Source: a virus
Taxonomy: Duplodnaviria > Caudoviricetes
Direction: 5' to 3' (one strand)
DNA length: 41,629 bases
Virus record (IMG/VR): IMGVR_UViG_3300021082_000060
Coordinates: 1 to 41,629 of that record
Position numbers and translations under genes: made by a program
Notes under the pieces: model-generated
What the model was told of the DNA's origin: nothing
The model's input: only the letters and a program-made list of their open reading frames with translations
The model's database searches: none
Shown here: positions 4,033-40,101 of the stretch, one piece after another
Numbering within the stretch: position 1 is the first letter of the stretch
Layout of the letters: each line of letters begins with the position of its first letter

Positions 4033-4215
4033 CAAACTGAACTGAATAACTAGGGGGTCGAGTAGCGCGGGGGGAGGGGGGCTGTTACCATTCTATGGTA
4101 TATATCAGTTATTCAGTTATTCAGTTAGTTATATAGGTATATCAACGGGATGGAGGACTAACCGGAGACTAACCGAGAAGTGACTGAGTGTCGGTTGGAA
4201 CGTAACTGACATATT
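4033..4215. other. AT-rich repeat region, candidate replication origin
   Basis: AACTGAATAACT (4040-4051) is inverted relative to overlapping AGTTATTCAGTT copies (4107-4126); CTAACCG direct repeats near 4158-4175; directly after the helicase gene. Confidence 0.55.
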
Positions 4216-4978: not shown

Positions 4979-5395
4979 ATGGGCGAAACTGTTCCCGATG
5001 CGCGTGCTAGCACTTCAGTTGCCCGTAGGCCGGGTCAGTTGTGGCAAAAAGGCCAGAGCGGAAACCCGAAGGGCAGGCCTCGCTCGCCCTACGATCTGCC
5101 TGCGCTCTGTCGTGAGCACACTGCTGAGGCCGTCAGGCGGCTGGTGCAGATCATGCGTGCCGAGGACGACGGGCGCGCTCTGGCAGCCATCCAGCAGCTG
5201 CTGGATCGTGGTTGGGGTCGACCAATTACCCCGATCGTCGACGAGACCGAGGGGACCAGTTTGACGTTGTTGCATTTGATTGCGGCGCGGCGTGTTGCCG
5301 AAACGTTGCAAGCCGTGGCGGAGGGGAAAACCGAGAACGAATCGGGCGACTCCTCCAAGCCTGTGGTCGATTATAGTGTTCCTGCCCTGGAATAG
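4979..5395 (+). CDS. terS: Terminase small subunit-like protein (DUF5681-type)
   Basis: WQKGQSGNPKGRP and LLDRGWGRP motifs typical of this TerS-like family. Confidence 0.7.
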   Translation: MGETVPDARASTSVARRPGQLWQKGQSGNPKGRPRSPYDLPALCREHTAEAVRRLVQIMRAEDDGRALAAIQQLLDRGWGRPITPIVDETEGTSLTLLHLIAARRVAETLQAVAEGKTENESGDSSKPVVDYSVPALE

Positions 5396-5396
5396 T

Positions 5397-5510
5397 CGTT
5401 AGAACAAACGCGGCGTGGCACGACGGGGCCTGTCCCGTACAGGCCCGGCCGGGCTCGTCAGGGCAGGGCAGGCATGACATGGCACAGGGGCGGCATCCTG
5501 CCGCCGCCCC
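5397..5510 (+). ncRNA. Solitary GGY-NN guide unit 1
   Basis: Leader CGTTAGAACAAACGC, 11 pentamers at 5412-5466, GGCA at 5467-5470, 3 more pentamers, then a GGGGCGGC/GCCGCCCC hairpin at 5487-5510. Confidence 0.8.
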
Positions 5511-5518
5511 AGCCGCCC

Positions 5519-5701
5519 TCATGCCGCCTGCTGCTTCCGCACGCTGTCCAGCCGGCCCAGAGCCTCGGCCAGCAGGCAGCGCGCATCCAGCACGAGACCG
5601 TAACCCACCGCGCTGATGGCGCCATAGCTGACCAGCCGCAGGCTCGCCATCGCCTGCTCCAGCTTGGCGGCGATCGCCTCCAGGTCGCGCATGTCACGCA
5701 T
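5519..5701 (-). CDS. Small hypothetical protein (MRDMRDLEAIAAK...)
   Basis: TGATG coupling with the upstream gene. Confidence 0.55.
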   Translation of the reverse strand: MRDMRDLEAIAAKLEQAMASLRLVSYGAISAVGYGLVLDARCLLAEALGRLDSVRKQQAA

Positions 5702-5916
5702 CACGCGACCTCCCAGGCGACCATAATGCCGTCGATGTCGGGGCCGAGGTAGGCAGACCGCAGCCATTGGGTCAGCGTCTCAGCGTCGCCTTTGGCCTCG
5801 GCCTCCAGTTCAGTCAGATCGCTGCTGAAGAAGTCGGCGAAGGTGAGGCCGTCTACGGCCTCGGTGCCGGTGATGTCCTCGCCGTTCTTGGCGATGAAAC
5901 GCATGCTGATCATCAC
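5701..5916 (-). CDS. Small acidic hypothetical protein
   Basis: Middle gene of a coupled three-gene minus-strand operon. Confidence 0.55.
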   Translation of the reverse strand: MMISMRFIAKNGEDITGTEAVDGLTFADFFSSDLTELEAEAKGDAETLTQWLRSAYLGPDIDGIMVAWEVA

Positions 5917-6098
5917 GCGATCTCCTCTTCGTCGTCGTATGCCTCGACATCGAACAGGTCCTCCGAGGAGTAGGGTTCACACTCTTTGTCACATGAGGGG
6001 CACCAGCTTGGTCCAATCACCAGCATCTCATCAGCAAATTCGTTGGGGCACTCGTCGCAGATATAGTGGCAACGAAAAACGCGCATGGGCTTAAGCAT
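5913..6098 (-). CDS. Small Zn-ribbon protein (CDEC...CPSC)
   Basis: AAGGAG RBS and ATG at 6098; two CxxC pairs; acidic tail. Confidence 0.65.
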   Translation of the reverse strand: MLKPMRVFRCHYICDECPNEFADEMLVIGPSWCPSCDKECEPYSSEDLFDVEAYDDEEEIA

Positions 6099-6147
6099 TG
6101 GAAGTCTCCTTGTGTTCGCTCGACAAGGAGGAACATAGACACAAGCC

Positions 6148-6176
6148 TTGACACAAGCAAGGGGCAATCGTATGTA
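6148..6176 (+). promoter_or_regulatory. Sigma70-like promoter
   Basis: TTGACA-N17-TATGTA upstream of the gene at 6208. Confidence 0.55.
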
Positions 6177-6207
6177 TCGGGTGTCGAGCAACACAAGGAC
6201 ACAGACC

Positions 6208-6459
6208 ATGGACATCCAGGCACACGAGGACGGCACGGGCTACGCGCCAAAGGCCGAGCGCTGGTACGCTATCGATCACGATACGTTCGATGGCTGCGAG
6301 GACGGCAACAACCGCGAGGGCCGCGGCTCATCCGCCAAGGCAGCGATCATGGACCTCATCGAGCGCCTGCTCGACGATGGCGAGATCGGCCACGATGAGC
6401 AGCGCGAGCTATGCCGCATCTACGGTATCGACCCGAGGGAGGTGGGATACGATGGATGA
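6208..6459 (+). CDS. Hypothetical protein (MDIQAHEDG...)
   Basis: AAGGA RBS and ATG at 6208. Confidence 0.65.
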   Translation: MDIQAHEDGTGYAPKAERWYAIDHDTFDGCEDGNNREGRGSSAKAAIMDLIERLLDDGEIGHDEQRELCRIYGIDPREVGYDG

Positions 6460-6565
6460 CCGCACTGACCTGCCGTCAGCCGCGACGGCCATCCTGGTGG
6501 TGGTCGTCGGCGTCGCCATCATCCTGGCGCTGCTGTTCCTGTTCCAAACCCTGGTGGTGCGATGA
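6452..6565 (+). CDS. Tiny single-TM membrane protein (37 aa)
   Basis: Hydrophobic stretch AILVVVVGVAIILALLFLF; GGAGG RBS. Confidence 0.55.
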   Translation: MDDRTDLPSAATAILVVVVGVAIILALLFLFQTLVVR

Positions 6566-6636
6566 TCGGCCTCATTGCCATCTTCCTGGTCGTCGGGCTC
6601 ACCTGCTGGGCCTGCCTGCACCTGATCAACCGATGA
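6562..6636 (+). CDS. Tiny membrane peptide (24 aa, MIGLIAIFLVVGLTCWACLHLINR)
   Basis: ATGA overlaps on both sides; almost entirely hydrophobic. Confidence 0.5.
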   Translation: MIGLIAIFLVVGLTCWACLHLINR

Positions 6637-6734
6637 TGGCAGCGGCAGCCCGGCTGCTGCTGCTATTAGCCTTCTACCTGGGCGCGCTCTGGTTTGGCGG
6701 CTACGTGTTCTGGCTGGCAGGGGCCATCAGGTGA
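6633..6734 (+). CDS. Tiny membrane peptide (33 aa)
   Basis: ATGA coupling; LLLLLAFYLGALWFGGYVFWLAG. Confidence 0.5.
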   Translation: MMAAAARLLLLLAFYLGALWFGGYVFWLAGAIR

Positions 6735-6753
6735 TCACACAGGGAGACGCCCC

Positions 6754-7074
6754 GTGAGATGTTGTAGATACTGTCTGACCCCTGCCGCCTACGGTGGAGA
6801 CGACCGCATCGAGGAGCTAGAGGCAGCGCTGACCCGCATCATCGAATGGGCTGACGCATATCCGTTCGCCGTGTTTCCAGAGGTGGACGAGGACTACGCC
6901 AAGCGGGCGCACACGGCGCTCACTGAGCACGGCATGACGCTGGACCGGCTGTCTGCCGACGTGATGCGGCATGTGCTGACCGGCGTGCGCCGCATCGCCA
7001 GCGGCGCCTTGCACACACAGGGAGACGCCGCTGCGCCATCAGGTGATGCACCAGCCCCACGCCGGATGCCATGA
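6754..7074 (+). CDS. Hypothetical protein (...IEELEAALTRIIEWADAYP...)
   Basis: GGGAG RBS and GTG at 6754; plausible phage-type protein sequence. Confidence 0.55.
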   Translation: MRCCRYCLTPAAYGGDDRIEELEAALTRIIEWADAYPFAVFPEVDEDYAKRAHTALTEHGMTLDRLSADVMRHVLTGVRRIASGALHTQGDAAAPSGDAPAPRRMP

Positions 7075-9069
7075 GCTCCTGTTGTGCCGGTGGAACTCAT
7101 CGTCGATCCAGGCATAGCTCGACGCCGCTTCCGCCACGCCATTGCGCACCGCCACAGCCAATGCCGCACGCACATACTGCGCGTATCCCACGCTGCCCGA
7201 CGTCTCGTTGTATAGCTCGTTCATGCCGCTTGGGTCGTTCGGCATGTGCGGCACGTCTTCCGGGTGCATCGCTACGGCGCGCATGCCCGCCTCCAGCCAG
7301 GACAGGTACTTCGGCCCGACCAGCACCTGACCAGCCGCATGCGCCACCGGAGCGCCGCGCGTGACCTCCCACAGCGCCTCGTCCGACTTATCGACGACCG
7401 TCATCGTCTCGTTCTGGCACTTGACCGGGAACGGTGGCACCGGCCACGGCCCGCCGCTGTAGTGATCGACCGGGACAAACGTGTCCGCATCGGTGATCGC
7501 CGCGGTGAGGCTGCACGTATATACAAGGCCGGTGTTGTATGGGCAGGGCGCGGAGCGTGGCCACGCCTCCCCGTTGGTGCGCTGAACCTCGGAATCGATC
7601 TTCCAGACCAACGGTTCCGACCACTCGTCGAACCCGAGTTGCACGCACATGCCGTAGACCAGCGACTCAAACGCACACTGCCAGAACACCGCGTAGGTTC
7701 CGGACGGATGCGCCGGGGTGCCCTGCGATCCACCGAATTGCCGGGCGCGGAACACCGCCAGGATCGGGTCCTCGTTGGCCATGTCCTTCAGCGCCTCGGC
7801 GCGGACCCCTTCCATGTGCTGGTGGAACACCGAGCGGGCCAGCAGCCAGCGTGGCGGGTCGTCCGGCGAGGCGACTGCCGCATACAGCTTGTTGCGCAAC
7901 GGCCATGCGCCATACCGCCCGGCCCAGGTGTAGCGACCAGACGCCGGCTCGTCCAGAATTTCGATGTTGGCCTGGAACTGCAACGCCTCTAGGTAATACA
8001 CGTCCCCGGTCAGCAACCACGGCAGGTAGCTACATGCGGGCGAATGTCCGCAGTCATAGGCAACGATGCCCTTGGTCATCGGCACGATCGGATCGCCGCC
8101 CTTCGGGTAGCTGGTCAGCGTCGGGTAATCCCGGATGAGATCGAGAGGCGCGCTGGTCACATAGTCCCTGAGATGCATGGACATCGTGCCCGACGCCTCG
8201 CCCTGGGCGATGACCGTCTCGGTGTTGTTCCCTTTGCACAGCCATTGTGCGGACCAGCCGGTCAGGATGCCGATGTCGGGTCGATCGCCGGTCCAGCCCA
8301 TGCCGGTGACCATGCCGCTGAACCCCATCACGCTATACGTTTGCGGAGCCAGATCGGTGATGAACTGGGCGAGGATCGTGCCGTCATAGTGCGGCACCTT
8401 GCCCTCGGCGATCAGTTGCTCGCGTGAAACACGCACCGGCCTGGGCGCCGACTGCCAGCGCCAGCGGGCATACCACGGATGGCTGGGCACCTCGATCGTG
8501 GCGATCAGCATGTCGCCGTCCCAGATCTCAGCGGTGTAGGCGCCAAGATTGGCTGGCGTCAGCGATGCGACCAGGGGCACGCCGAGCTCGAAGACGACCT
8601 CTTGCCGCCCACCGTCCGCGTCGGGGCGGAACCATACGGTGAGGCCGGGCAGCGTGCCGTCCTGTCTGGGCGCGCGGTAGCAGTGCTGGGTGAACTGGCC
8701 TTCGGGGTCGACGTAGTCCCCCATGTCCTCGGCCCGGACCTGCTCGTAATCCGTCTCGCCGGATGGTGTGCGGATGACAACGGCCAGCCCCTCCCCGATT
8801 GGCTCCGGCTTGGGCGGTTCAGGTGTCGGCAGGGTGTTGTCGATGACCGGCGGGGCTGTCGGTAGGATATTATCGATGAACGGCGGTGCCACGCCGCCCC
8901 ACGTGCCGTCAGGCGGCTCTGGCGTCGGTGGTGTGGGCGTGGTGACCGCGTTCTCCAGCGCCAGCACACGGGCGTCCAGGGCGGCGATCGCCGCATCGGT
9001 GGCGCCGGCATGCTCCTCTAGAGCAGCGACACGCTGTTCCAGCTGTGGATCGTCCGTGGGCTTGGGCAT
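7039..9069 (-). CDS. Large protein: N-terminal coiled coil, Pro-rich linker, putative alpha-helical carbohydrate-active-like domain
   Basis: About 677 aa ORF with IDN(I/T)LPT repeats, GDRPDIG and DCGHSP..YLPWLLTGDVYYLEALQF motifs; function is inferred only. Confidence 0.6.
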   Translation of the reverse strand: MPKPTDDPQLEQRVAALEEHAGATDAAIAALDARVLALENAVTTPTPPTPEPPDGTWGGVAPPFIDNILPTAPPVIDNTLPTPEPPKPEPIGEGLAVVIRTPSGETDYEQVRAEDMGDYVDPEGQFTQHCYRAPRQDGTLPGLTVWFRPDADGGRQEVVFELGVPLVASLTPANLGAYTAEIWDGDMLIATIEVPSHPWYARWRWQSAPRPVRVSREQLIAEGKVPHYDGTILAQFITDLAPQTYSVMGFSGMVTGMGWTGDRPDIGILTGWSAQWLCKGNNTETVIAQGEASGTMSMHLRDYVTSAPLDLIRDYPTLTSYPKGGDPIVPMTKGIVAYDCGHSPACSYLPWLLTGDVYYLEALQFQANIEILDEPASGRYTWAGRYGAWPLRNKLYAAVASPDDPPRWLLARSVFHQHMEGVRAEALKDMANEDPILAVFRARQFGGSQGTPAHPSGTYAVFWQCAFESLVYGMCVQLGFDEWSEPLVWKIDSEVQRTNGEAWPRSAPCPYNTGLVYTCSLTAAITDADTFVPVDHYSGGPWPVPPFPVKCQNETMTVVDKSDEALWEVTRGAPVAHAAGQVLVGPKYLSWLEAGMRAVAMHPEDVPHMPNDPSGMNELYNETSGSVGYAQYVRAALAVAVRNGVAEAASSYAWIDDEFHRHNRSSWHPAWGWCIT

Positions 9070-9315
9070 ATTCACAACCGATCACTGATGAACCGGTGCA
9101 GCATATCTGCGAACTCTCGCAGCGAGAACTCACCGCCCTCACCATCCCGGTCCAGGGCGATCATATCGGGGTCCTCACACAGCGTGACGCGGATATGCTC
9201 GATGGTCAGGACGAACCCGGCGGTGCGTAACGAAGAGTGTTCCTTGGGCATTGGCGTTCCAGTTGGCGAGAATCCGCCGGTAGTGGCATGTTACCCACAG
9301 GGGGAGCCACCCGCT

Positions 9316-9537
9316 ATGTCGATGATGTCGATGCCGCACACGCACGAGGTGCGTTACCGCGAGCTTAGCTACGCGCAGAAGCGGGCGATCCGCGAGCAAC
9401 TGGAGTCCTCGTTCGACTGGGATGACGGGAAGTACGCCGAGGGTGCGTCAGACCACAGCATTGCCGCTGAGGTGGGCGTCGGATGGTCGCTGATCCGCTA
9501 CGTGCGTGAGCGCGACTATGGAACCCTGGCGAGATGA
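9316..9537 (+). CDS. Small HTH-like protein
   Basis: GGGGAG RBS; SDHSIAAEVGVGWSLIRYVRE helix-turn-helix pattern. Confidence 0.6.
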   Translation: MSMMSMPHTHEVRYRELSYAQKRAIREQLESSFDWDDGKYAEGASDHSIAAEVGVGWSLIRYVRERDYGTLAR

Positions 9538-10265
9538 GAACCGAGCACATCGGCGACGCGACGCTGTATTTGGCCGACTGCAGGGACGTGCTGCCGGGGC
9601 TGGCGGGCGTGGATGCCGTGGTGACCGACCCGCCGTATGGCATCGGCTACCAGCGAGGGAGCAACAACCACAACAGTGTTCACAGCGGGCGGAAGTTTGG
9701 GTTGGATGCGCGCGATTTATCGCCGGTAACGGGCGACGATGTGCCGTTTGATCCTACGATGTGGACCAGTGCTGCTGACGACGTGATCCTGTGGGGTGCC
9801 AACCATTACGCACAGAAACTGCCGCATGGACGATGGCTCGCCTGGAATAAGCTCGGTGATCTGATGCCGTGGGATGACTTCTGCGATGTCGAGTTCGCAT
9901 GGCACAACAAGCGAAAGGCCGACCGCATCTTCTCGCATCTGTGGAAGGGGCTTTGTCAGAAGGGTGCTGGTGTCAGGCGCGAGCACCCAACACAGAAGCC
10001 GGTTGAGCTGATGATGTGGTGCGTCGAGATGACGCGTGGCGTTGTCCTCGACCCATTCATGGGCAGCGGCACAACGGGCGTTGCCTGCGCGCGCCTGGGT
10101 CGCTCGTTCATCGGTATCGAGATCGAGCCGCGCTACTTCGACATAGCGTGTCGCCGGATCGAGCAGGCACAGCGGCAGCGCGATCTGTTCGTGCATGCGC
10201 CAGTGCCGGTGGACCCGCAGGAGCAGCGCATCCGCGACCTGTTCGCGCCCCTGGCTGCCGACTGA
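9534..10265 (+). CDS. N6-adenine/N4-cytosine DNA methyltransferase (beta class, orphan)
   Basis: VVTDPPYG precedes HPTQKP and VLDPFMGSGTTG. Confidence 0.92.
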   Translation: MRTEHIGDATLYLADCRDVLPGLAGVDAVVTDPPYGIGYQRGSNNHNSVHSGRKFGLDARDLSPVTGDDVPFDPTMWTSAADDVILWGANHYAQKLPHGRWLAWNKLGDLMPWDDFCDVEFAWHNKRKADRIFSHLWKGLCQKGAGVRREHPTQKPVELMMWCVEMTRGVVLDPFMGSGTTGVACARLGRSFIGIEIEPRYFDIACRRIEQAQRQRDLFVHAPVPVDPQEQRIRDLFAPLAAD

Positions 10266-10274
10266 GGTGGCCCC

Positions 10275-12824
10275 ATGACGCTGCACCTGCAACCTGATAT
10301 ACTGGCGCCAGATACGAGCGATTCACCACCACCTGCGGGCGGCGCGTCCCCCAACGACAAGCCGCCCGACTTTTCCGCCTTCGACTTCGCCCTCCAGCGC
10401 TACAATCGCGCCCCCATAGCCTTCGTGAAGGAGGTCCTCCTTCAGGAGCCCGACGCGTGGCAGATCGAGGCGCTCAGGGGCTTCGCCCGCGGCTTCACCC
10501 GGCACAGCATCAAAAGTGGTCACGGTGTCGGCAAAGCACTTACGTTATCGGAACTAGTTCCAACGCCGGATGGGCAGAGACGATGGGGTGATCTGCAACC
10601 CGGTGACCGGCTGTTTGGCCGTGATGGCGAGCCGACGCACATCGTAGCGCGCCATGACCAGGGCGTGCGGCCAATCTACCGGGTGACGTTCGATGACGGC
10701 ACGAGCTGCCGCGTTGACGGCGAGCATCTGTGGACCGTGCGCGGTCGCGCGCAGCGGCGGACTGATCGGGCTGGCGGAAAGACCGGCGACTTCATCACCC
10801 TCACTACCGCCGAGATCCTTCGCCGTGGGGTAAAGCGAGCCAACGGTGCAACGCTGGCGCGTCAGTGGGAGCTACCACCCCATGGCCCAGCGCAGTATCC
10901 GGCGCAGCATGTGTCGCTCGCGCCTTATCTGCTCGGGTTCTATCTGGGCGACGGCATGCTGAACAAATCTGGGGTGCAGTTCAGCGGCAGTGAGGCAAAG
11001 ACCCAGGCTCTTATCGAGACATGTGCCGCGCTCGGTATCAGCCACAGCACGCCTCATGGTGATGGAGATCGATGGGTAGTCCGGCTTCGCGGCATAAGCG
11101 CAACGCTCAACGAACTTGGGTTGGGCGGCAAGTTGTCAGGCTCGAAGTTCGTCCCGCTGATCTACAAGGAGAACACTCCAGCCGTCCGTCTCGCCGTGCT
11201 GCAAGGCCTGATGGACACTGACGGTTACTGCGACGCTCGCGGTATCGCTGTTTACACCAGCGTCTCGCAACAACTAGCCGAGGATGTCGCATGGCTGGTG
11301 CGATCGCTCGGCGGCAAGGCTCACATGGGCGCCGCGCAGCGAAGCCACTACCGCGACTCTGACGGTGCGCTGGTGCGCGTGCAGGACCACTACGACGTGA
11401 CAGTGCGCCTGCCACCGGACATGCCGCTGTTTACCCTGCCGCACAAAGCCAACCGCGTGCAGCCCTGTGAGCCGCGCTACCTGGCGCGGTGGATCGAGGC
11501 GATTGAGATGGACGGTGAAGAGGAGGCGATGTGCGTTACAGTTGACGCGCCGGATGGCCTCTATCTCGCGAATGACTTCATCGTCACGCACAACTCATGC
11601 TTGGCTGCCTGGGTGGTGCTGTGGTTCATCTGCACCCGCGCACCGTTCAAGTGTGCGCTGACCGCGCCATCGGCGCCGCAGCTGTTCGACGTCTTATGGC
11701 CCGAGCTCCTCAAGTGGATGGGCCGCATGCCCGAGCAGTGGCAGGCGCTGTGGGACGTGACCACAGACCACATCACCCTCAAATCGGACAAGGAGTGCTT
11801 CGTCACCGCCAGGACATCGAGGCCTGAAACGCCCGAGGCGATGGCAGGATTGCACTCTCGCAACATCCTGCTGGTGGCAGACGAGGCATCCGGCATCGAC
11901 GAGAAGGTCTACGAGGCTGCCAGCGGCTCAATGAGTAGTTCCGGAGCCATTACGTTACTCATTGGCAATCCGACACGAGACTCTGGGTTCTTCTGGCGCA
12001 CGCACACGCTGGAGCGCGATCGCTGGCGCTGCATGACCGTGTCCAGTGCCGAGAGCACGCGTGTCGACCCGAGCTACATCACCGAGATGTCCGAGCGCTA
12101 CGGCAGCGAGAGCAACGCGTTCAGGGTTCGGGTGCTGGGCCAGTTCCCGTCCGGCTCCGACGACGTGTTCATCCCCGGCGAACTGGTCGACAGCGCGATG
12201 AACCGCGACATGGCCCTCGATGTCGGCGCACCGATCATCTGGGGAATCGACGTCGCCAGGTTTGGTGCCGATGCTTCCGTGCTGATCAAGCGCCAGGGCA
12301 GTTGCGTGACCGAGCCACCGCGGCGCTGGCGCAACGTGGACCTCATGGTGCTCGCAGGCGCCATCAAGCACGAATACGATCTGGCCAACACCGCGCGCCC
12401 CATGCTGATCGTGGTGGATTCGATCGGCATCGGCGCTGGCGTGGTCGATCGCCTCCAAGAGCAGGCGCTGCCGGTGCTGGGTGTGAACGTCGCCGAGTCG
12501 CCGGCCAACCAGACCAACTACATGCGCCTTAGGGACGAGCTCTGGGGAAGAACACGGGAATGGCTGGCGACACGCACCGTGCGTTTGCCCCGCGACGACC
12601 TGCTCCGCGCCGATCTTGTGGCGCCGAAATACACGTTCAGCTCTACGGGCAAGCTGACTATCGAGAGCAAAGAGAGTATGCGGCGTAGAGGACTGCCCAG
12701 TCCCGACAGCGCCGATGCGTTAATGTTAACGCTCGCGCAACAAGGGCTGATGGTAACGTCAGCGAACCAGAGTTGGTTATATGATACGCAGCCGGTGATT
12801 AGCAGCATTCCCGGCATGGAGTGA
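10275..12824 (+). CDS. terL: Terminase large subunit containing an intein
   Basis: Walker A SGHGVGK|S, Walker B LLVADEASG, GNP coupling motif, nuclease WGIDVARFGAD and SPDSADAL. Confidence 0.95.
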   Translation: MTLHLQPDILAPDTSDSPPPAGGASPNDKPPDFSAFDFALQRYNRAPIAFVKEVLLQEPDAWQIEALRGFARGFTRHSIKSGHGVGKALTLSELVPTPDGQRRWGDLQPGDRLFGRDGEPTHIVARHDQGVRPIYRVTFDDGTSCRVDGEHLWTVRGRAQRRTDRAGGKTGDFITLTTAEILRRGVKRANGATLARQWELPPHGPAQYPAQHVSLAPYLLGFYLGDGMLNKSGVQFSGSEAKTQALIETCAALGISHSTPHGDGDRWVVRLRGISATLNELGLGGKLSGSKFVPLIYKENTPAVRLAVLQGLMDTDGYCDARGIAVYTSVSQQLAEDVAWLVRSLGGKAHMGAAQRSHYRDSDGALVRVQDHYDVTVRLPPDMPLFTLPHKANRVQPCEPRYLARWIEAIEMDGEEEAMCVTVDAPDGLYLANDFIVTHNSCLAAWVVLWFICTRAPFKCALTAPSAPQLFDVLWPELLKWMGRMPEQWQALWDVTTDHITLKSDKECFVTARTSRPETPEAMAGLHSRNILLVADEASGIDEKVYEAASGSMSSSGAITLLIGNPTRDSGFFWRTHTLERDRWRCMTVSSAESTRVDPSYITEMSERYGSESNAFRVRVLGQFPSGSDDVFIPGELVDSAMNRDMALDVGAPIIWGIDVARFGADASVLIKRQGSCVTEPPRRWRNVDLMVLAGAIKHEYDLANTARPMLIVVDSIGIGAGVVDRLQEQALPVLGVNVAESPANQTNYMRLRDELWGRTREWLATRTVRLPRDDLLRADLVAPKYTFSSTGKLTIESKESMRRRGLPSPDSADALMLTLAQQGLMVTSANQSWLYDTQPVISSIPGME
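10536..11594 (+). mobile_element. Class 3 (Ala1) intein with LAGLIDADG homing endonuclease, 353 aa
   Basis: Starts ALTLSELVPTPDG; block B EHLWTV; LAGLIDADG-like LLGFYLGDG and LQGLMDTDG; block F AMCVTV; ends IVTHN/S. Confidence 0.9.
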
Positions 12825-12827
12825 CCG

Positions 12828-13163
12828 ATGCAGTTGATCCACATCGAGCGCGTCTCTGCCACCTCCGACGACGAGCGCCTGGGCTTCCTGCTGGCGGCAC
12901 GGGCCAAGGCAGCTGAGCAGGTGGTCGCCGCCAACGTGCGCGCCCAGGCGAGCAAGGTGGATCTGATCGAGCACATCACCCGGCGCATCCAGGATGGCGC
13001 TGACCGGCTCAGGTTGCGTCACCGGCTGCTGGAAAGCGGCATGCCGACCAGCATCGCCGACGCCATCATGCGCGCCGCCACCGACGCCGCATGCCCCGAC
13101 CGTCCTGCCGGGGTGACCGGAGGCACAAGCCAGCAGTCGGACTTCCCCGAGTTCCAGACATGA
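12828..13163 (+). CDS. Hypothetical protein
   Basis: Follows terL by 3 nt with a GGAG RBS. Confidence 0.6.
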   Translation: MQLIHIERVSATSDDERLGFLLAARAKAAEQVVAANVRAQASKVDLIEHITRRIQDGADRLRLRHRLLESGMPTSIADAIMRAATDAACPDRPAGVTGGTSQQSDFPEFQT

Positions 13164-13339
13164 GCCCGCTCGCAATCATCCTGATCGTCGTGCTGCTGGT
13201 GCTCCTTCTAGGAGGAGGATTCTACGGCTACCGCGGCGGCTACTACGGCGGCAGTGGATACGGCAGCTACGGCATCGGCATCGTGGGAGTGATCGTCATC
13301 GTGTTGCTGATATTGCTGCTGATGGGACGCATCGGATGA
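13160..13339 (+). CDS. Small Gly-rich two-TM membrane protein (DUF3309-like)
   Basis: IILIVVLLVLLLGGGFYGYRGGYYGG...IVIVLLILLLMGRI; ATGA coupled on both sides. Confidence 0.7.
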   Translation: MSPLAIILIVVLLVLLLGGGFYGYRGGYYGGSGYGSYGIGIVGVIVIVLLILLLMGRIG

Positions 13340-16092
13340 GCGGCATCCTGCCACCCGGCGCACCGCCCGGCCTGCGCCAGGGTGTTAACCCGATGGCGCC
13401 GCAGGTGGGCCAGCAAGGCATGAACCCGCCGCAACAGGGTCTGCTGGCGCCCAACACACAGAGCTACGGGGCACCGCCGCTGCCGCCGATCGAGGGTCTG
13501 GTGCGACCGATGGGCCAGCGACCCACCGACCATCAGGTCATCGCCACCTTGTTGCCTAGGCGCAAGGACGAGGACATCCCGGACGACCCTACCGACGATC
13601 TGCCACCGGAGATCCGGCCTTACGCGCTGGGCCTGCGCCCGAGCGTGCAGCCATCCTCGACCCCGTGGGTGCAGGAGGTCGTTTACGCTCGACTCGGCAA
13701 AGAGGACAGCGAGATCAGCGAGATCAACCGATACTACTTTGGTATCGCGCGAAACTATGACGAGGAGTTGAGTAACCAGAGAGTTACGGCGTCGGAATAT
13801 TACAACGGCAAGGGCTTCGGCGACGAGCCGGCGCTGAAGGGTCGTTCTCAGTTGGTGATGACTGTTGTTAGGGACACCATCCGCAGCACCCTCCCGAGCC
13901 TCCTGCGCGTGTTCACGGGCGTCGAGGACCCGGTGCATTTCGAGCCGATATCATCGGAGATATCCGGCAACGACAAGCTGGCAACTATGTTATCCCGCCA
14001 GGCGACAGACTACGCCCGCTGGGCGCTGTTCGTGGCTAATCCAGGATGGTCGATCCTGCATGATGCCCTGTTGGACGCGCTGACCCGCAAGGCCGGCTGG
14101 GTGCGTTGGTCGTGGGGTAAGAAGCAGCAGATCCGCACTGAGGTGGCCGAGGGCCTCATCCTGCCGCAACTGCAGATGCTGCTCGCCGAGCCGGGCATCG
14201 AGGCGCAACGCATCGTGCGCCGCCCGATGACCAGGGCCGAGCAGGAAGCGATGGCCAGGACGCCCGAGGGCCAGATGTATCTGGGGCAGGGTGGGCCTCC
14301 GGAATACTGGAGCGCTACCATCACACGCAGCGTGCAGCAGGCGTGGCCGGTGGTTGAATCGGTGCCGTCCGAGTGCGTGTGGGTGGTGTCTGACGCGTCC
14401 ACCGTCAAAGAGGCGCGCGGTGTGTTCCACGTCAGGGACGTATCGGCCTCCGACCTGATCGAGATGGGGTTGGATGAGCACGCGGTGCTGCGGGCCGGCG
14501 GTTCAGCGCCCACGACGCAGTGGCGGCGCGAGGCGATCGCCAGGGACAGCGCGTCCGGGCACCACATGCACGGCGGGCCACCTAACGACCGCTCCATGGG
14601 CATGATCCGCTACATCGAAGGCTGGATCAGGTGCGACGCCGACAACGACCACAAGGCCGAGTTGCTGCACACCCACAGCCTGGGCGACGACTGCCGGCTG
14701 GTGCAGTGGGAGCGCACCGACGAAATCCCGCTGAGTTGCTTCACCCCGTATCGCGAGCCGGGGAGGATCATCGGGTCGTCTGTGTCCGACATGGTGATGG
14801 ACCTGCAACGCCTGCAGTCCAGGGTCATGAGGGCGACCCTCGATAGCCTGGGTCAGGCGATGTATCCGAGGACGGTGATCACCCTCGGTCAGGTGAACAT
14901 GTCCGACGTGCGCCAGACCGCTATCGGCTCGATCATCCGCGTCGCGCAGCAGGGCGCCGTGCAGGAGCTCGTGAAGCCGTTCGCCGGGGCAGCGGCGCTG
15001 CCGATCATGCAGTTGCTGGAGGGCGTCAGGGAGAGCCGCACCGGCATCACCCGCGCCTCTCAGGGCCTGACCGTCGACGAGCTCCAGAGCACCGCACCGA
15101 TCGCCGTAAGCCAGCAGACATCCGCCGCGCAGGACCGGCTGGACATGATGGCGCGCACCTTGGCCGAGACCGGTCTGGCGCCGCTATACAGCGGTCTGCT
15201 GCGCATGCTCGCCAAGCAGCAGGACCGGCCCAACGTGATCCGCATCCGGGGCGAGTGGATATCGATCGATCCCAGAGCGCTGGGCACGATGTGGGAAGCC
15301 GCGGTCGAGGTCGGCGGCAAAGGCATGCCGATGGAGCGATTGGCCATGCTCGCCCAGATCGCCGGCAAGCAGGAACAGATCATCACCAACTACGGGTTGC
15401 ACAATCCGCTGGTTGGCGTGCCCGAGTACAGGAATACCCTCGCGCGCATGCTGGAGACCGCCAACATCGCCGACGTCAGCAACTACTTCAAAGAGCTGCC
15501 CGACGACTGGCAGCCGCCGCCGCCCAGCCAGGGGCCAACCCCGGAACAGGTGCTGGCCATGGTGCAGCAGCAGAAGACCGCCGCGGACCTGGAGACGGAT
15601 CGCGCCAAGGCGCAGACCGATCGGTCCAAGGCGCTGTCGGACGACGATCGCGAGCGGGATAAGGCGGCGCTGGACGCATGGGTGGAGCTCTGGAAGATCG
15701 GCGCGCAGTTCGGCACGCCCGTGCCATCGCTCGACGAGCTACGCGCGGCGATGCAGCCCGACCAGCCCAACCTGGGCCTCATCGGCGACCTGCCGCCGCC
15801 CACGTCCCCGCAGCAGCCGGCGACCGGCATGCAGGGGCCGCAGCAGCCCAAGCCGGGGCCAGCCTCGCCGATGATGGGGATGGCGCCGGGACAGGGCGGA
15901 GGCCTGGGGGCCCAGCGTCCGCAGGCGCCGCTGGCTCCGCCGGTAGGCTCCACCCCGCCCGACACCGCTCATATGGTTCGCCAGGCGCTCGCCACCGGTA
16001 ACTTACCGACGAATTACGGTCAGATCGCCGATCGTGCGGTGGCCGGTAGCATCGCCGGCATGGGCGGGCCTTCGGTCAGGCCGGGCGCATGA
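13336..16092 (+). CDS. Portal protein with Pro/Gln-rich N- and C-terminal extensions
   Basis: Downstream of terL; EYYNG...GRSQLV...VRDTI...LPSLLRVF and LLDAL..KAG motifs of podophage portals. Confidence 0.88.
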   Translation: MSGILPPGAPPGLRQGVNPMAPQVGQQGMNPPQQGLLAPNTQSYGAPPLPPIEGLVRPMGQRPTDHQVIATLLPRRKDEDIPDDPTDDLPPEIRPYALGLRPSVQPSSTPWVQEVVYARLGKEDSEISEINRYYFGIARNYDEELSNQRVTASEYYNGKGFGDEPALKGRSQLVMTVVRDTIRSTLPSLLRVFTGVEDPVHFEPISSEISGNDKLATMLSRQATDYARWALFVANPGWSILHDALLDALTRKAGWVRWSWGKKQQIRTEVAEGLILPQLQMLLAEPGIEAQRIVRRPMTRAEQEAMARTPEGQMYLGQGGPPEYWSATITRSVQQAWPVVESVPSECVWVVSDASTVKEARGVFHVRDVSASDLIEMGLDEHAVLRAGGSAPTTQWRREAIARDSASGHHMHGGPPNDRSMGMIRYIEGWIRCDADNDHKAELLHTHSLGDDCRLVQWERTDEIPLSCFTPYREPGRIIGSSVSDMVMDLQRLQSRVMRATLDSLGQAMYPRTVITLGQVNMSDVRQTAIGSIIRVAQQGAVQELVKPFAGAAALPIMQLLEGVRESRTGITRASQGLTVDELQSTAPIAVSQQTSAAQDRLDMMARTLAETGLAPLYSGLLRMLAKQQDRPNVIRIRGEWISIDPRALGTMWEAAVEVGGKGMPMERLAMLAQIAGKQEQIITNYGLHNPLVGVPEYRNTLARMLETANIADVSNYFKELPDDWQPPPPSQGPTPEQVLAMVQQQKTAADLETDRAKAQTDRSKALSDDDRERDKAALDAWVELWKIGAQFGTPVPSLDELRAAMQPDQPNLGLIGDLPPPTSPQQPATGMQGPQQPKPGPASPMMGMAPGQGGGLGAQRPQAPLAPPVGSTPPDTAHMVRQALATGNLPTNYGQIADRAVAGSIAGMGGPSVRPGA

Positions 16093-16262
16093 GCGAGCAG
16101 GTGATCCCGCTCTTTGGCGGCGGCGACAAGCGGGCCGAAGCGCTGGAGACGGCGATCCTCAACGTAATCCGCAGGCGCGGCACCGGTCTGCCGTTCCCGC
16201 TGGTGCTGGGTGTGCTCAGGCTGATCGAGCACCGGCTGATAGCGGAGGTGGAAGTGCCATGA
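16089..16262 (+). CDS. Small hypothetical protein (57 aa, MSEQVIPLFGG...)
   Basis: ATGA overlap with the portal stop. Confidence 0.55.
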   Translation: MSEQVIPLFGGGDKRAEALETAILNVIRRRGTGLPFPLVLGVLRLIEHRLIAEVEVP

Positions 16263-16271
16263 GCAGGGACC

Positions 16272-16481
16272 ATGGGTGACCGCACCAAGCGCCCGATGTC
16301 GGAAACTGAGCGGGATCTGATCATAACCCTCCGAATCCAGGGCAAAACCTATCCGGAATTGGCCGAATTGACCCAAAGACCCCTCGGAACCATCAGTTCG
16401 GTGCTTTCCAAGGCCATTTTGACCCGCAAAGACCTCAGAACCCGCGAGATGGACCCTTTAGTGAAGCGGAAAACGCTATGA
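16272..16481 (+). CDS. Small HTH DNA-binding protein
   Basis: GKTYPELAELTQRPLGTISSVL. Confidence 0.6.
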   Translation: MGDRTKRPMSETERDLIITLRIQGKTYPELAELTQRPLGTISSVLSKAILTRKDLRTREMDPLVKRKTL

Positions 16482-16765
16482 ACTGGACGTTGGACCTCAA
16501 CGCCGAGCCAAAAAGCATCATGGAGGCCCGTCAGGAGGCTTCCATGGCCCAACGGGTGCTGAATGACGCGGTTTTCGTCGATTTCCTCGACCAAATGCAG
16601 CATGCAGCATCAAATACCGCGCTTTTCGATGACAAACTCGAGGTTCGGGACGCCGCACGTGTGAAGGTGCTGACCATTGCCGAGCTCAAGGCCCGGCTTC
16701 AGGAGGCGGCGCGCCGCCCGGTGCAGGACGCCGAGGACCAGGAACAGGCCACGGTACACGAATGA
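16478..16765 (+). CDS. Conserved head-region hypothetical protein
   Basis: ATGA-coupled; between portal and scaffold. Confidence 0.65.
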   Translation: MNWTLDLNAEPKSIMEARQEASMAQRVLNDAVFVDFLDQMQHAASNTALFDDKLEVRDAARVKVLTIAELKARLQEAARRPVQDAEDQEQATVHE

Positions 16766-17100
16766 GCATATGCAACAAATGCGGCGAGCGGGAGCGCAAA
16801 CCAGGGCAGCGATGGTGCCGTGAGTGCCACGCAGCCTACATGCGCGCGTGGCGGCAAACTCACTCTCTCAGCGAGGAGGATCGCAGGAAGGACGCATGCC
16901 GATCATACAGCAGGACGCTGGTGAAACGGGGCAAGCTGGCCCCTGAGCCGTGCCAGACCTGCGGCGCCGAGCCGGCGCAGAGGCATCATCCAGACTACAG
17001 CAACTCGTATCACGTCGAGTGGCTTTGTGCGCCGTGCCACCGCGCGCATCACAAGCCAAGGCCGGAACCGTGGTGGTTACCGGAGGATAATCGCCTGTAA
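16762..17100 (+). CDS. Zn-finger/HNH-like endonuclease
   Basis: CNKC, CREC, CQTC and RHHPDYS...WLCAPCHRAHH. Confidence 0.7.
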   Translation: MSICNKCGERERKPGQRWCRECHAAYMRAWRQTHSLSEEDRRKDACRSYSRTLVKRGKLAPEPCQTCGAEPAQRHHPDYSNSYHVEWLCAPCHRAHHKPRPEPWWLPEDNRL

Positions 17101-17110
17101 GGGGGACCAT

Positions 17111-18193
17111 ATGTCTGAAACAACCGGGCCGGCCCCGCCAGCCGCGCCCACTGCCGACACCAGCAGCAGCGACTTTGCGCCCGCACCAGACACCCGGCCA
17201 GAGCTTAGTGTCAGCGACGCGGCGAGGATGCTGCGGAACGCCAGGCGCGCCCAGCCAGCGCCGCAGCAAGGGCTACCCAACGTGGAGCAGCCTGCCGGCT
17301 TCGGGCACAATTCCGGCGAGGCGGCGCCGCAACCACCGCAAACACCAGCCCAACCCGGTGGCATGTCTGCGCTGGAACGCGCCTTAGGGCTCCAGCCCGA
17401 CTCTGACAATCCTGACGTCCCACATGAAACACCCGGCAGTACGCCTGCCCAAATCCCGGCAGAGATCGAACTGGAGGGCCGGCGCTACACGCAGGCCGAG
17501 TTGGCTGCCGCAGTGCGTCAGGCGCAGGACTACACCCAGAAGACCCAGCAGCTATCCGCCCAGGCACGCCAGCTACAGGCGCAGCAGCAGGCCCTGGCAG
17601 CCGCCCTGCCGCTGATCCAGCCCGAGATTGAGGCGCTGCAACGCCGGCTTGCCGAGGCGCCGCGCCCCGACCCGCAGCTACGCCAGACCGATCCGGCGGC
17701 GTATTGGGACCAGCTGGCGACTTGGCAGGACGCGCAGATCGAGCACCAGCGCGTCTTGGCGATCCAGACGCACCAAGCCCAGGCCCGCGAGGCAGCGGTC
17801 GCCCAGGCTGTCGATCAGGCGAACCACGAACTAGCCCAGAAGTATCCGTTCTGGTCGGACCCGCAGCAAAGGCGGGAGATCCAGCAGGATATCATCAGCT
17901 GGGCCAGAACGCAGGGCTACACCGATCAGGAACTGCACGGCCTGACCTCGGCAAAATATCTTGAAACACTTTTCAAGGCCTCGCTCTATGACCGCTACCA
18001 GGCCCGCATTAAGCCCCAGGCGACGCAGCCTGCTGTGGGGCATGCGCCGCGCGGCACCGCCCCCCCGCCGCCGCCTGCCGCGCGGGTCAGGGAGGCGACC
18101 GAGACGTTCGAGCAGCGGCCCACCGTGGCCAACGCTGCCGCTTTGATCGGTGCCCGGCGGGCACCACGCGGCAATGGACACACCCAATGGTAG
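17111..18193 (+). CDS. Capsid scaffolding protein
   Basis: Disordered N-terminus, DYTQKTQQL motif and coiled coils; upstream of the major capsid gene. Confidence 0.8.
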   Translation: MSETTGPAPPAAPTADTSSSDFAPAPDTRPELSVSDAARMLRNARRAQPAPQQGLPNVEQPAGFGHNSGEAAPQPPQTPAQPGGMSALERALGLQPDSDNPDVPHETPGSTPAQIPAEIELEGRRYTQAELAAAVRQAQDYTQKTQQLSAQARQLQAQQQALAAALPLIQPEIEALQRRLAEAPRPDPQLRQTDPAAYWDQLATWQDAQIEHQRVLAIQTHQAQAREAAVAQAVDQANHELAQKYPFWSDPQQRREIQQDIISWARTQGYTDQELHGLTSAKYLETLFKASLYDRYQARIKPQATQPAVGHAPRGTAPPPPPAARVREATETFEQRPTVANAAALIGARRAPRGNGHTQW

Positions 18194-18228
18194 CCTGTCA
18201 CACTGGCAACATTCCTGGGGGAACGCAC

Positions 18229-18939
18229 ATGAGACACGTATTGCTTGCCGCCACAGCGATCGCCGCTCTTGCCTTCGTGCCGTCAGCCAATGCGACACTG
18301 CAACTGAGCATCGGCGCCAATGGCTCGACCTTCACCTGTGCGGACGGTCAGTTGGGCTGTGACCTGTCAGGCGGCGCCAACAACTTGCTGACGGTCAACA
18401 CGTTGGTGGGCGGCGCCTTCGTGCAGATCACCCTCGTGCAGAGCGTCGCCGGGACGGTCAATTCGCTCCAGATGTCGTCCAGCAACATCGAGAACCAGAG
18501 CGACGCACCGATCGTCGTCACCCTGCTGGCGAGCCAGACGGACTTCCTCGGGCCGGTCTCCGCGATCAGCAACAGTGGCTCGCTCACGTTCAACAACAAC
18601 GTGGGCGCGACCGACAGCACGCTGAAGTTCTGGGCGGACGCGGCGAACGTGCAGGGCGCCAACCCGACCAACACGCCTGGCACCTTGCTGGAGACCGTGA
18701 CGGGAGCCGCGACCACTAACCCGGACTCTTTCGCTGGCAGCAATGTCGCGCTGTTCGCCGCGGGCGGGCCGTTCTCCATGACCGAAGGCGCGGCGCTGGC
18801 GCTGATCACGGGCGGCTCGATCACCGGCTTCAATCAGTCGATGGTGACCACGGCTGCCGTGCCCGAACCGGCCTCCCTGGGTATCCTTGGCCTCGGCATG
18901 CTGGGCCTCGGCATGGTGCAGTATCGCCGCCGCAGCTAG
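18229..18939 (+). CDS. PEP-CTERM sorting-domain exported protein
   Basis: Signal peptide MRHVLLAATAIAALAFVPSANA; Ser/Thr/Asn-rich body; C-terminal VPEPASLGILGLGMLGLGMVQYRRRS. Confidence 0.9.
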   Translation: MRHVLLAATAIAALAFVPSANATLQLSIGANGSTFTCADGQLGCDLSGGANNLLTVNTLVGGAFVQITLVQSVAGTVNSLQMSSSNIENQSDAPIVVTLLASQTDFLGPVSAISNSGSLTFNNNVGATDSTLKFWADAANVQGANPTNTPGTLLETVTGAATTNPDSFAGSNVALFAAGGPFSMTEGAALALITGGSITGFNQSMVTTAAVPEPASLGILGLGMLGLGMVQYRRRS

Positions 18940-18946
18940 ACGGCAC

Positions 18947-19047
18947 GGGGACTGGATTGCCCCAGTCCCCACCTTGCCTGCCGAGCCACGACGGGCCCTG
19001 CCCCGCCCTGTCATGCCACGCCTAGCCACGCCGTCTTTGTTTTAGCG
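18947..19047 (-). ncRNA. Solitary GGY-NN guide unit 2
   Basis: Leader CGCTAAAACAAAGAC, 10 pentamers at 19032-18983, GGCA at 18982-18979, 2 more pentamers, then a GGGGACTGG/CCAGTCCCC hairpin at 18947-18970. Confidence 0.8.
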
Positions 19048-19270
19048 TGAGCTTGCAGGAAACGCACCAACCGTCTTAGTATTTACATCGACGGCGATGG
19101 CAGTGCTCGCACCCAGCGGCGCCGTGACGTGCCGGCATCGAGGCTGATGCCGTTCTGAGGACCACCGACCGGGAGTGCTTGCACCCACTCGGCACGGCCT
19201 CCGCAGGACCAGTCGCTCCAGATGCAGAACCCGCCCCGCAAGGGGCTTGTCCTGTTCTAGGAGCGAATCC

Positions 19271-20257
19271 ATGGCCTCACCGCCAACGATGGCGTCCGCG
19301 CCGGCTAACACCTACACCCAGCAGCTTGCATCCGGCACGGTCCACGAAGACGTCAGCGACGTTATTTATAGAATCGACCCGGAGGAGACCCCGTTCGTCT
19401 CGGCGCTGCCGCAGGTCGGCTCAAAGCAGATTTTGACCGAGTGGCTCACCCAGACCCTGAATAGCGCCGCAGACGTGCCGCAGCCCGAGGGCTTCACGGC
19501 GGTGATCAGCCCGTCTGTGAAACCAGTCCGCATGTCGAATGTCTGTCAGATCTTCGCACGCACGGTCGGGGTGTCGGGAACACTCAGAGTGGTGGATTCG
19601 ATCGGCGGTGAAGATGAGTACAACCGCCAGCTTGTGATGCGGGGCATCGAGCTCAAGCGCGACGTGGAATTGGTCTCCACCTCCAACATTCCCAAGGCGG
19701 CGACCGACCCGCGGCACATGGCCGGCATGCCGACGTTCTGCACCAACGGCAGTGTCGGCGCTGGCGGCACCATGCCGGTCGGCGACGGTAGCGCCGCGGC
19801 AGTGCCGGGCACGGCTAGGGACCTGACACTCACGATCGTCAACGACGCCATGCAGCAGGCGTGGAACCAGGGCGGCAAGCCGACCATCGGGCTCATGTCT
19901 GGTAACATTAAAAACTACTTCAGCACCCTGTCACAGGGCGGCACCGGCAATCCGATCGTGTCGCAGAATATCCAGTCCACGACTGCATCCCAGGAAGTTA
20001 CCATCATGGGCGCGGTGGACGTTTACCGCACCAATTTCGGCACGCTCGATCTGGCGCCTGACAGGTTCATGCCACCCAACATGATGCTGCTGATCACCCG
20101 CGATTACGTGGAATTGGCGCCGCTGCCAGAAAGAAATATGGTGGAACAGGCGTACGCCAAAACGGGCGACAATACGCAGGGCGGCATCGTCTTTGAGGGC
20201 ACGATCCGCGTCACTGCACCCAAGGCGCATGCCGCAATCTTCGGGTTGAACCAGTAG
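19271..20257 (+). CDS. Major capsid protein (DUF5309/SU10-like)
   Basis: EDVSDVIYRIDPEETPF, N.CQIF.RTV.VSGT, ELKRDVE and Y.TNFGT motifs; AGGAG RBS. Confidence 0.9.
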   Translation: MASPPTMASAPANTYTQQLASGTVHEDVSDVIYRIDPEETPFVSALPQVGSKQILTEWLTQTLNSAADVPQPEGFTAVISPSVKPVRMSNVCQIFARTVGVSGTLRVVDSIGGEDEYNRQLVMRGIELKRDVELVSTSNIPKAATDPRHMAGMPTFCTNGSVGAGGTMPVGDGSAAAVPGTARDLTLTIVNDAMQQAWNQGGKPTIGLMSGNIKNYFSTLSQGGTGNPIVSQNIQSTTASQEVTIMGAVDVYRTNFGTLDLAPDRFMPPNMMLLITRDYVELAPLPERNMVEQAYAKTGDNTQGGIVFEGTIRVTAPKAHAAIFGLNQ

Positions 20258-20260
20258 CCC

Positions 20261-20572
20261 ATGCCCACGCTCTATGAACGCTACGACCCGGTCACCACGC
20301 GTTACACCGAGATCGTCACCGACTCGGAGACTGGGCTGCCGATCATTACTTTTACTCAGGATACCAAGCCGATCGTCGAGGCATGCAAGCGGGCGGCCAG
20401 CAACTTCACCGGCACCAGCAAGACCGGCTTCACCCGCGTGGCCAGCATTCCAAACGTGGTGGTGCAGCGGCTGATGCAGACCGGCATCTGGTACGACGAG
20501 AAGGCGATGAACGTGTGGCTGAACCAGCGGGACAACAGAGTGTTCAGGACGGACGACGGACGACGTCTCTAG
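20261..20572 (+). CDS. Conserved post-capsid virion-region protein
   Basis: TQDTKPIVE, VASIP and WLN..DN..FRT pattern; directly after the capsid gene. Confidence 0.75.
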   Translation: MPTLYERYDPVTTRYTEIVTDSETGLPIITFTQDTKPIVEACKRAASNFTGTSKTGFTRVASIPNVVVQRLMQTGIWYDEKAMNVWLNQRDNRVFRTDDGRRL

Positions 20573-39864: not shown

Positions 39865-40101
39865 GTGCGATACGTTTACAAGAGCCCGCGTATGGAGCGC
39901 GAGCGGGACGCGGTGCTAGGGCCTCTGCTGACCCAGCGCGGTATGGTCACGTTCCTGGCGCGTGAATTGGGCATCTCCAAAGCCGCGGTAGCGCAGTGGT
40001 ACAGCATTCCCGACATGCATATCGCGGCGATCAGCAAGCTATTGGACATCCCGCAATACCAACTGCGCCAGCAGCCGCGCCGTCCGAAGGTGGCGGCGTG
40101 A
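39865..40101 (+). CDS. Cro-like HTH regulator
   Basis: AAGGAG RBS before GTG at 39865; FLARELGISKAAVAQWYSIP. Confidence 0.8.
   Translation: MRYVYKSPRMERERDAVLGPLLTQRGMVTFLARELGISKAAVAQWYSIPDMHIAAISKLLDIPQYQLRQQPRRPKVAA

Follow-up and report, generated by a model that had tools for sequence, protein, structure and literature searches.

VIPR systems combine a RAMP effector, Vipr, and an accessory gene with guide RNAs (vrRNAs) of 9-16 GGY/NN units, which are read through a wobble code with a skip of 1 nucleotide (nt); their targets are phages, their guides are laid out in staggered arrays with a structured 3' tail, and systems with a single vrRNA are also mentioned (10.64898/2026.04.26.720920). 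A match of at least 80% is regarded there as a target, and no self match of at least 80% occurs in its P. fulva, type III and type V sets. Solo or orphan vrRNAs, defined in the excerpted text of a second preprint by the lack of vipr on the contig or within 20 kb, are described in F5 satellites and in vipr-null phages of the SUSP1 family, and target REP elements, vipr, vrRNAs or satellites (10.64898/2026.10.15.759431). Here we describe two solitary guide units in the viral record IMGVR_UViG_3300021082_000060 (Caudoviricetes; 41,629 nt, hereafter the window), a phage genome with its own vipr gene. With a leader, 10-11 GGYNN units, GGCA and a hairpin, they are likely stand-alone VIPR guide-RNA genes with one guide each (cassettes A and B). 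We think it rather probable, from the sequences of the window and its relatives, that such guides would be loaded on Vipr and silence sister terminase or head alleles while the mismatched self copy escapes. The feature is real, and its reading as a variant in the deployment of VIPR is well supported by population sequence.

Anatomy of the two cassettes and their self sites

The leader of cassette A (5397-5411, plus strand), conserved in all 11 rows of our alignment in which this site (slot A) is filled, contains TAGAAC (5400-5405), a putative -10 hexamer separated from the first guide G by 6 nt. It is followed by 11 GGYNN units (5412-5466, plus) and by a tail (5467-5510, plus) of GGCA, three pentamers that resemble the junction at 172-195 of the main array (92%), and a GC hairpin (5487-5510) without a U-tract. 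Cassette B, on the minus strand and antisense to the late operon, has a leader (19033-19047, minus) with the putative -10 hexamer TAAAAC (19044-19039), 10 GGYNN units (18983-19032, minus), and a tail (18947-18982, minus) of GGCA, two pentamers (the second overlapping the stem) and a GC hairpin (18970-18947), again without a U-tract. The 50 nt upstream of guide B are identical in the relatives that have slot B. Both guides, with 11 and 10 units, some on a degenerate GAC, GTC or GTA scaffold, fall within the published range of 9-16. The hairpins have z-scores of -3.45 (A) and -4.12 (B), and those of the four slots found in the clade and of the array range from -2.6 to -5.2, as expected of the structured 3' tail of VIPR. 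The cassettes read as non-coding, and an Rfam search of them gave no matches.

An earlier sequence-only reading of the window had given both leader strings and their consensus correctly, together with the succession of 10-11 pentamers, GGCA, 2-3 extra pentamers and a hairpin (11 and 3 in A, 10 and 2 in B). Its remark that the main array ends similarly is borne out by GGCA, pentamers and a hairpin (z-score -3.85), but the stem there begins GGGTGGGG. The common leader that it proposed stands in part. The 15 nt preceding the first G agree at 11 of 15 positions between A and B (binomial P 2.4e-4, for an alignment made after the fact), and CGYTARAACAAA with at most one mismatch is present only at the two cassette sites, with no third copy in the window (0.17 in shuffles; the pattern was derived from both sites). 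The terminal GGCGTGGC was rejected as leader, because these last 8 nt are guide unit 1 and the start of unit 2, where other slot-A rows differ; in G002, L227, L231, L232 and L233 the slot-A leader precedes GCCCC GGCAC. The slots named C and D below have other leaders. As a general marker the leader fails: AACAAAN{2,4}GGCGTGGC occurs at at least 119 viral loci, with GGYNN runs at 3 of 119 among the matches listed, and the motif is not diagnostic outside the clade.

The guides were decoded with the published 1-nt-skip code, and the match score counts the read bases, two per GGYNN unit. The target of the slot-A guides is a terS-like DUF5681 gene (4979-5395, plus), which we take to encode the small terminase subunit; the self copy of the guide-A site (5197-5229, minus; codons LLDRGWGRPIT) scores 20/22, with the skip base at codon position 3. 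Guide B is aimed at the phrog_3982 gene (20261-20572, plus), directly after the major capsid gene, and the self copy of its site (20326-20355, minus) scores 18/20, with the skip base also at codon position 3 and mismatches at Ile28 and Phe31. Each unit had been said to sit within about 0.2-1.3 kb of the gene that it nearly matches, and the distances are indeed 183 bp (A) and 1323 bp (B). None of 1000 shuffled guides matched either self score, and the 1-nt skip at the wobble position reaches 21/22 and 20/20 in relatives, whereas skips of 0 and 2 give at most 16.

For guide B we compared 16 phrog_3982 genes including that of the window (10 distinct sequences), leaving out L093 (incomplete gene) and L094 (42% identity). 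Among the 15 other records with the site, 12 match at 20/20, two at 19/20 and one, a distant record, at 18/20. Of the 103 residues of the window's protein two are private, Ile28 and Phe31 (Leu and Tyr in relatives); at no others does it differ from all 14 close relatives, and both coincide with the two mismatches of the guide. Guide A scores 21/22 in 20 of 68 other records, 20/22 in 47 and 19/22 in one; over its first 10 units it matches G001 at 20/20 vs 18/20 in self. The terS allele of the window is the commonest, being found in 46 of 69 records (the count leaves out L226, which is the window itself, L293-L295 without a guide-A site, the partial L296 and the distant L290 with 17/22), and a derived escape of the self allele from guide A was rejected because it is the majority allele.

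Slots, guide versions and silent codon switches in sister phages

Relatives were gathered with terS, phrog_3982, Vipr and capsid queries and as whole records; for ten of them the alignment with the window has a mean identity of 79-88%. Across the clade there are four cassette slots with eight guide versions in all, and every cassette lies 0.12-1.3 kb (122-1323 bp) from its packaging or head target. There are six distinct target sites (two in terS, and one each in the terL C-terminus, the scaffold gene, the capsid N-terminus and phrog_3982), all read with the wobble skipped and by pairing with the coding strand. In a 685-kb pool of clade sequence each of the eight guide versions outscored all 60 shuffles, and high matches came from skip 1 alone, the guide locus itself apart.

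Of the 72 rows for slot A, 11 (10 records) contain a cassette, 54 are empty and 7 lack flank; in several of the empty rows the end of terS directly abuts the convergent gene. Its shell holds three main guides. At units 2 and 4 the slot-A guide of G001 spells the letters of the window, which the guide of the window itself does not, and the G002-type guide aims at the second terS site (5260-5295, minus), which has TTG at four Leu codons in the window and scores 19/24 here and 22-23/24 in 46 non-carrier records. At L231 3688 (plus), slot A is a mini-array of two guide units with a GGCA joint, the 3' part of which resembles an array guide. Slot B is filled with other sequence in G001, G008 and L322, and in five other records it has the same 50-base leader with a guide for the capsid N-terminus. 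This guide matches at 18/18 in 6 non-carriers, 17/18 in the window, and 16/18 in all five carriers and 2 non-carriers (carriers vs non-carriers, Fisher P 0.021; the carriers are not independent). Slots C and D, after the scaffold gene and after terL, are each aimed at that gene and are absent from the window; slot-C guide versions have TT or GT in NN, matching the alleles of G008 and the window, respectively. Targeting is reciprocal, guide B of the window scoring 20/20 on G002 and the slot-C guide of G002 19/20 on the window's scaffold gene. Sites for relatives' cassettes lie in the window at 18118-18147 (scaffold, 19/20) and 19291-19317 (capsid, 17/18). The slot-B guides of the window (19032-18983) and of L082 377 (minus) have units 1-3 and 6 in common, and their targets, in different genes, are motifs each ending in Thr-Tyr-Thr, which suggests that an old slot-B guide was retargeted stepwise rather than freshly copied.

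In all 21 guide-carrier pairs, which represent the eight guide versions and leave out L227 and L231 (incomplete or variant guide), the carrier's own site has 2-5 mismatches, and in 20 of the 21 some non-carrier outscores the carrier. Self match ranges from 77 to 91% across carriers and is 90-91% in the window. By our own count, the guide letters at self-mismatched units correspond to an allele seen in a sister at 18 of 20 units, and of these 20 units 11 are silent Leu, Arg or Ser switches and 9 change the residue. Under the G002-type guide, TTR stands at the four Leu codons in 8 of 8 distinct carrier terS segments vs 5-6 of 44 non-carrier segments, the background share of TTR among Leu codons being 16% in 17 window genes. 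The sequence-only reading had linked each cassette to a mismatched self allele, which it took to be resistant; the link to a mismatched allele is supported for B (a private allele, with a single carrier) and for the 21 pairs of the clade, whereas the self allele of A is the commonest and any resistance is a prediction.

More distant phages with Vipr (G011-G014, Cy-LDV1, L098-L104) have arrays only, and the cassette caller found no clear solo cassette in them. At G018 7460 (plus; L098, L099), in a more distant Vipr phage, the last array guide matches at 17/20 a Walker-A-like coding stretch about 150 bp downstream. An unrelated phage of 34% GC, G016 (L218), has three dispersed GGYNN units (11198, 19975 and 23989, plus) with an AT-rich leader common to them; no Vipr was found in it with the window's protein as query, and no near-self target for its units.

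Expression, proposed action and alternative readings

Cassettes in slots B, C and D are oriented against the late operon and would need a start of their own if expressed. The hexamer at -12 to -7 from the first G is -10-like in all four slot types (TAGAAC, TAAAAC, CAACAT and TACCTT); in each, position -14 is G and position -11 is A. The hexamers of A and B lack the final T, as do most alphaproteobacterial promoters according to the excerpted text of PMC7703639. Six public RNA runs contain at most 8% of the query words; five were compared (region A: X1, X2, X3 and X5; region B: X1-X4), and contigs of X1, X2 and X5 carry the G001-type slot-A guide, the G001-type terS allele also being present in X1. 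The start of one contig lies near 5411, to which we attach no weight. We infer that the cassettes are transcribed from their own -10-like leaders. The autonomy claimed for them is supported by the genetics, as modules that are present or absent as a whole, with a kept shell and swapped guides, and by B lying antisense to the late operon; the promoter and terminator scan gave no match at either cassette.

The guide RNAs, once loaded on the phage's Vipr, would bind and silence sister versions of a terminase or head gene, and the carrier's neighbouring copy, mismatched in at least 2 read bases, is predicted to escape. The cassettes are thus probably weapons aimed at close relatives and kept next to a self copy whose protection is predicted. 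Since these phages are mosaic, recombination would be expected to separate a guide in a distant array from the safe allele, so that it attacked the genome that carries it; beside the gene, it would be inherited together with that allele as one module. Guides probably follow alleles through point changes in NN, and targets probably escape by switches that the wobble-skipping code sees but the protein does not (Leu CTN/TTR, Arg CGN/AGR, Ser TCN/AGY), or alternatively by conservative substitutions. Some phages keep their packaging start in terS. In mixed infection the carrier might gain by a block in cis, by polar shut-off of the rival's late operon, or by occlusion of a packaging start in terS such as the one reported for P22 in the part of PMC9611059 available. 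More tentatively, cassette and recoded neighbour may form an RNA-programmed self/non-self module, with at least four slots, reciprocal attack, a guide chase by point mutation and silent Leu/Arg/Ser escape; if binding at terS biased which genome is packaged, this could amount to a nuclease-free, RNA-guided allele drive that structures strains.

Several points weigh against this account. The -10 criterion was chosen after viewing the sites (background 1.7% per position), neither cassette gave a match in the sigma-70 promoter and terminator scans, the sequences around -35 are poor, the hairpins lack a U-tract, and the matches in the RNA runs are assembled contigs, blind to start, strand and level. 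No record matches guide A at 22/22, and 45 others carry the window's allele; the G001-type guide reaches at most 20/22 anywhere, and its carrier L234 ties the best score. The carriers are related, so each slot may have a single origin, and the TTG patch takes in a fifth Leu beyond the guide footprint, which may make it in part a linked haplotype. Silencing a trans-acting gene in mixed infection gives the carrier genome no automatic advantage. Protection of self is the weakest step of the mechanism: the window's self matches of 20/22 and 18/20 exceed the published 80% target threshold, and its mismatches fall in the 5' half of both guides, distant from the 3' end at which the filament is reported to engage first and from which pairing is reported to proceed. 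Data on mismatch tolerance were not found in the available part of the structure paper that reports this (10.64898/2026.04.26.720927).

The high self match (77-91% across carriers), the constant proximity of target to cassette and the 5'-distal mismatches of the window would also fit autoregulation, in which a tuned imperfect match partly represses the phage's own late genes and delays or damps virion assembly. We regard this as improbable, because at 18 of 20 self-mismatched units the guide spells an allele that really occurs in a sister, 54 of 65 terS rows with flank lack a cassette, and one slot changes its target gene between strains. No more probable is a selfish drive, in which cassette and mismatched allele would spread during mixed infection without benefit to the remaining genome, the sister allele being blocked or broken and recombinants with the module thereby favoured. 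Its layout would be that of the free-standing endonucleases of T4, whose sites lie hundreds to thousands of bp away (PMC2988022, in part), and the polymorphic slots, an ERF recombinase in the genome and HNH-like genes in some neighbouring intergenic sites are in keeping with it; Vipr of the characterised type, however, binds and represses without cutting, the accessory gene has no nuclease match, and slot A is filled in only 11 of the 65 rows with flank. That the guides are relics, copied from the adjacent gene by an unspecified local step and no longer functional, is very improbable: copying would account for the proximity and for the strand common to the six sites, but scaffolds and hairpins are intact, and the single NN changes between guide versions follow extant alleles, as in slot C. 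Decoys that soak up or redirect a rival's Vipr, as satellite solo vrRNAs do in the excerpted text of 10.64898/2026.10.15.759431, and whose own promoter would permit expression independent of the vipr operon, are hardly credible in a phage that has its own Vipr and guides matching single-copy essential phage genes, not host repeats.

The VIPR locus of the window and comparison with known systems

The window is the whole record of a podophage of about 41.5 kb, its final 126 bases being repeated near the start, with an SU10-like portal and capsid, terL, tail genes, an ERF recombinase and a VapE-like helicase. On the minus strand the vipr gene (1231-1953) is followed by a vap-like accessory gene (758-1234) and the main array (98-754), which is the staggered layout of fig. 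S18 in 10.64898/2026.04.26.720920. The vipr product (RAMP effector; phrog_4652) matches SUSP1 Vipr (PDB 36pp_D) by phmmer at E 1.9e-4 over residues 169-215, spanning the thumb/G-loop region only. The accessory gene was assigned by position (phrog_15946); searches against Pfam, phrog and Atlas clusters (the latter without a name) gave no Pfam or nuclease match and no informative family. The array comprises 11 guides, each with 9-11 units, and a remnant of 2 units, with GGCA joints and a terminal hairpin (127-98). Its guide 2 (696-647, minus) scores 19/20 on vipr of G001, G009 and L232 and 16/20 on the window's own (1542-1513), and its last guide (186-137, minus) 17/20 on the window's own Cro-like gene (39943-39972) and 18/20 on L281. 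Conversely, the first array guide of G001 scores 18/22 on the window's vap, and an array guide of L232 17/20 on the hairpin region that ends the window's array (88-117) and 16/20 on its own; the latter resembles the published vrRNA-targeting guides.

Elsewhere in the genome, a gene for a PEP-CTERM protein (18187-18939) lies between the scaffold gene and cassette B, and terL (10275-12824) has a weak LAGLIDADG match in a segment that G001 lacks and that is probably an intein. An exact 8-bp tandem repeat of 2.9 copies (4105-4127) after the helicase gene is a possible origin site, and ACACAAG motifs repeated at 6099-6200, between divergent small genes, are possible operator sites. Before the capsid gene, a conserved non-coding stretch (19090-19270) with two copies of GTGCT(T/C)GCACCC may be a structured RNA; its short stems show paired changes among five records, and Rfam gave no match. 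A model of prophage immunity was not supported, as no tyrosine integrase was found in 5 records and the divergent Gp157 and Cro-like open reading frames are only 47 bp apart. No relative of Vipr was found in GTDB contigs. The host search gave capsid relatives at 32-36% in Rhodospirillaceae and Vicinamibacterales bins and one exact 39-residue piece on a 3.4-kb contig of a further bin.

Earlier publications cover VIPR and its staggered arrays, systems with a single guide, and orphan guides whose self scores are lower. No description of guides set next to the phage's own mismatched allele of a core gene, or of silent escape at the first codon position, was found in the available text of the VIPR preprints and of a survey, to which the comparison was confined. 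The clade offers a natural allele series for asking how many mismatches protection needs, how guides are reprogrammed and how self is spared while near-identical kin are targeted, it points to a silent route by which targets likely evade a code that has been called resistant to mutational escape, and its leader-tail shell, which occurs with several natural guides, could serve directly as an expression cassette in tests.

Compared with VIPR as published (10.64898/2026.04.26.720920), the window has all of the Vipr RAMP, the accessory gene, GGY/NN guides, the wobble-skip code and the staggered array. It differs in that cassettes A and B lie 3.5 and 17 kb from vipr and beside the target gene, in a self match of 90-91%, and in a tail of GGCA, pentamers and a simple hairpin, whereas that of SUSP1 is a pseudoknot. 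With the solo vrRNAs, as far as the excerpted text of 10.64898/2026.10.15.759431 describes them, the cassettes share a single guide with a tail outside the operon, targets in relatives, and a self score below the non-self score, there reported for vrRNA-targeting guides. They fall outside that definition, however, as vipr is present at 3.5 and 17 kb, and they target core packaging and head genes next door. The same text argues that escape needs changes that determine the amino acid, whereas 11 of 20 mismatched units are silent here. Like the free-standing homing endonucleases of T4 (PMC2988022, in part), the cassettes are intergenic elements beside a conserved gene that would act on a relative's copy hundreds to thousands of bp away; the T4 enzymes are protein nucleases that cut and convert, whereas the element here is a guide RNA, retargetable by a change of a few bases, whose silencer is predicted not to cut.

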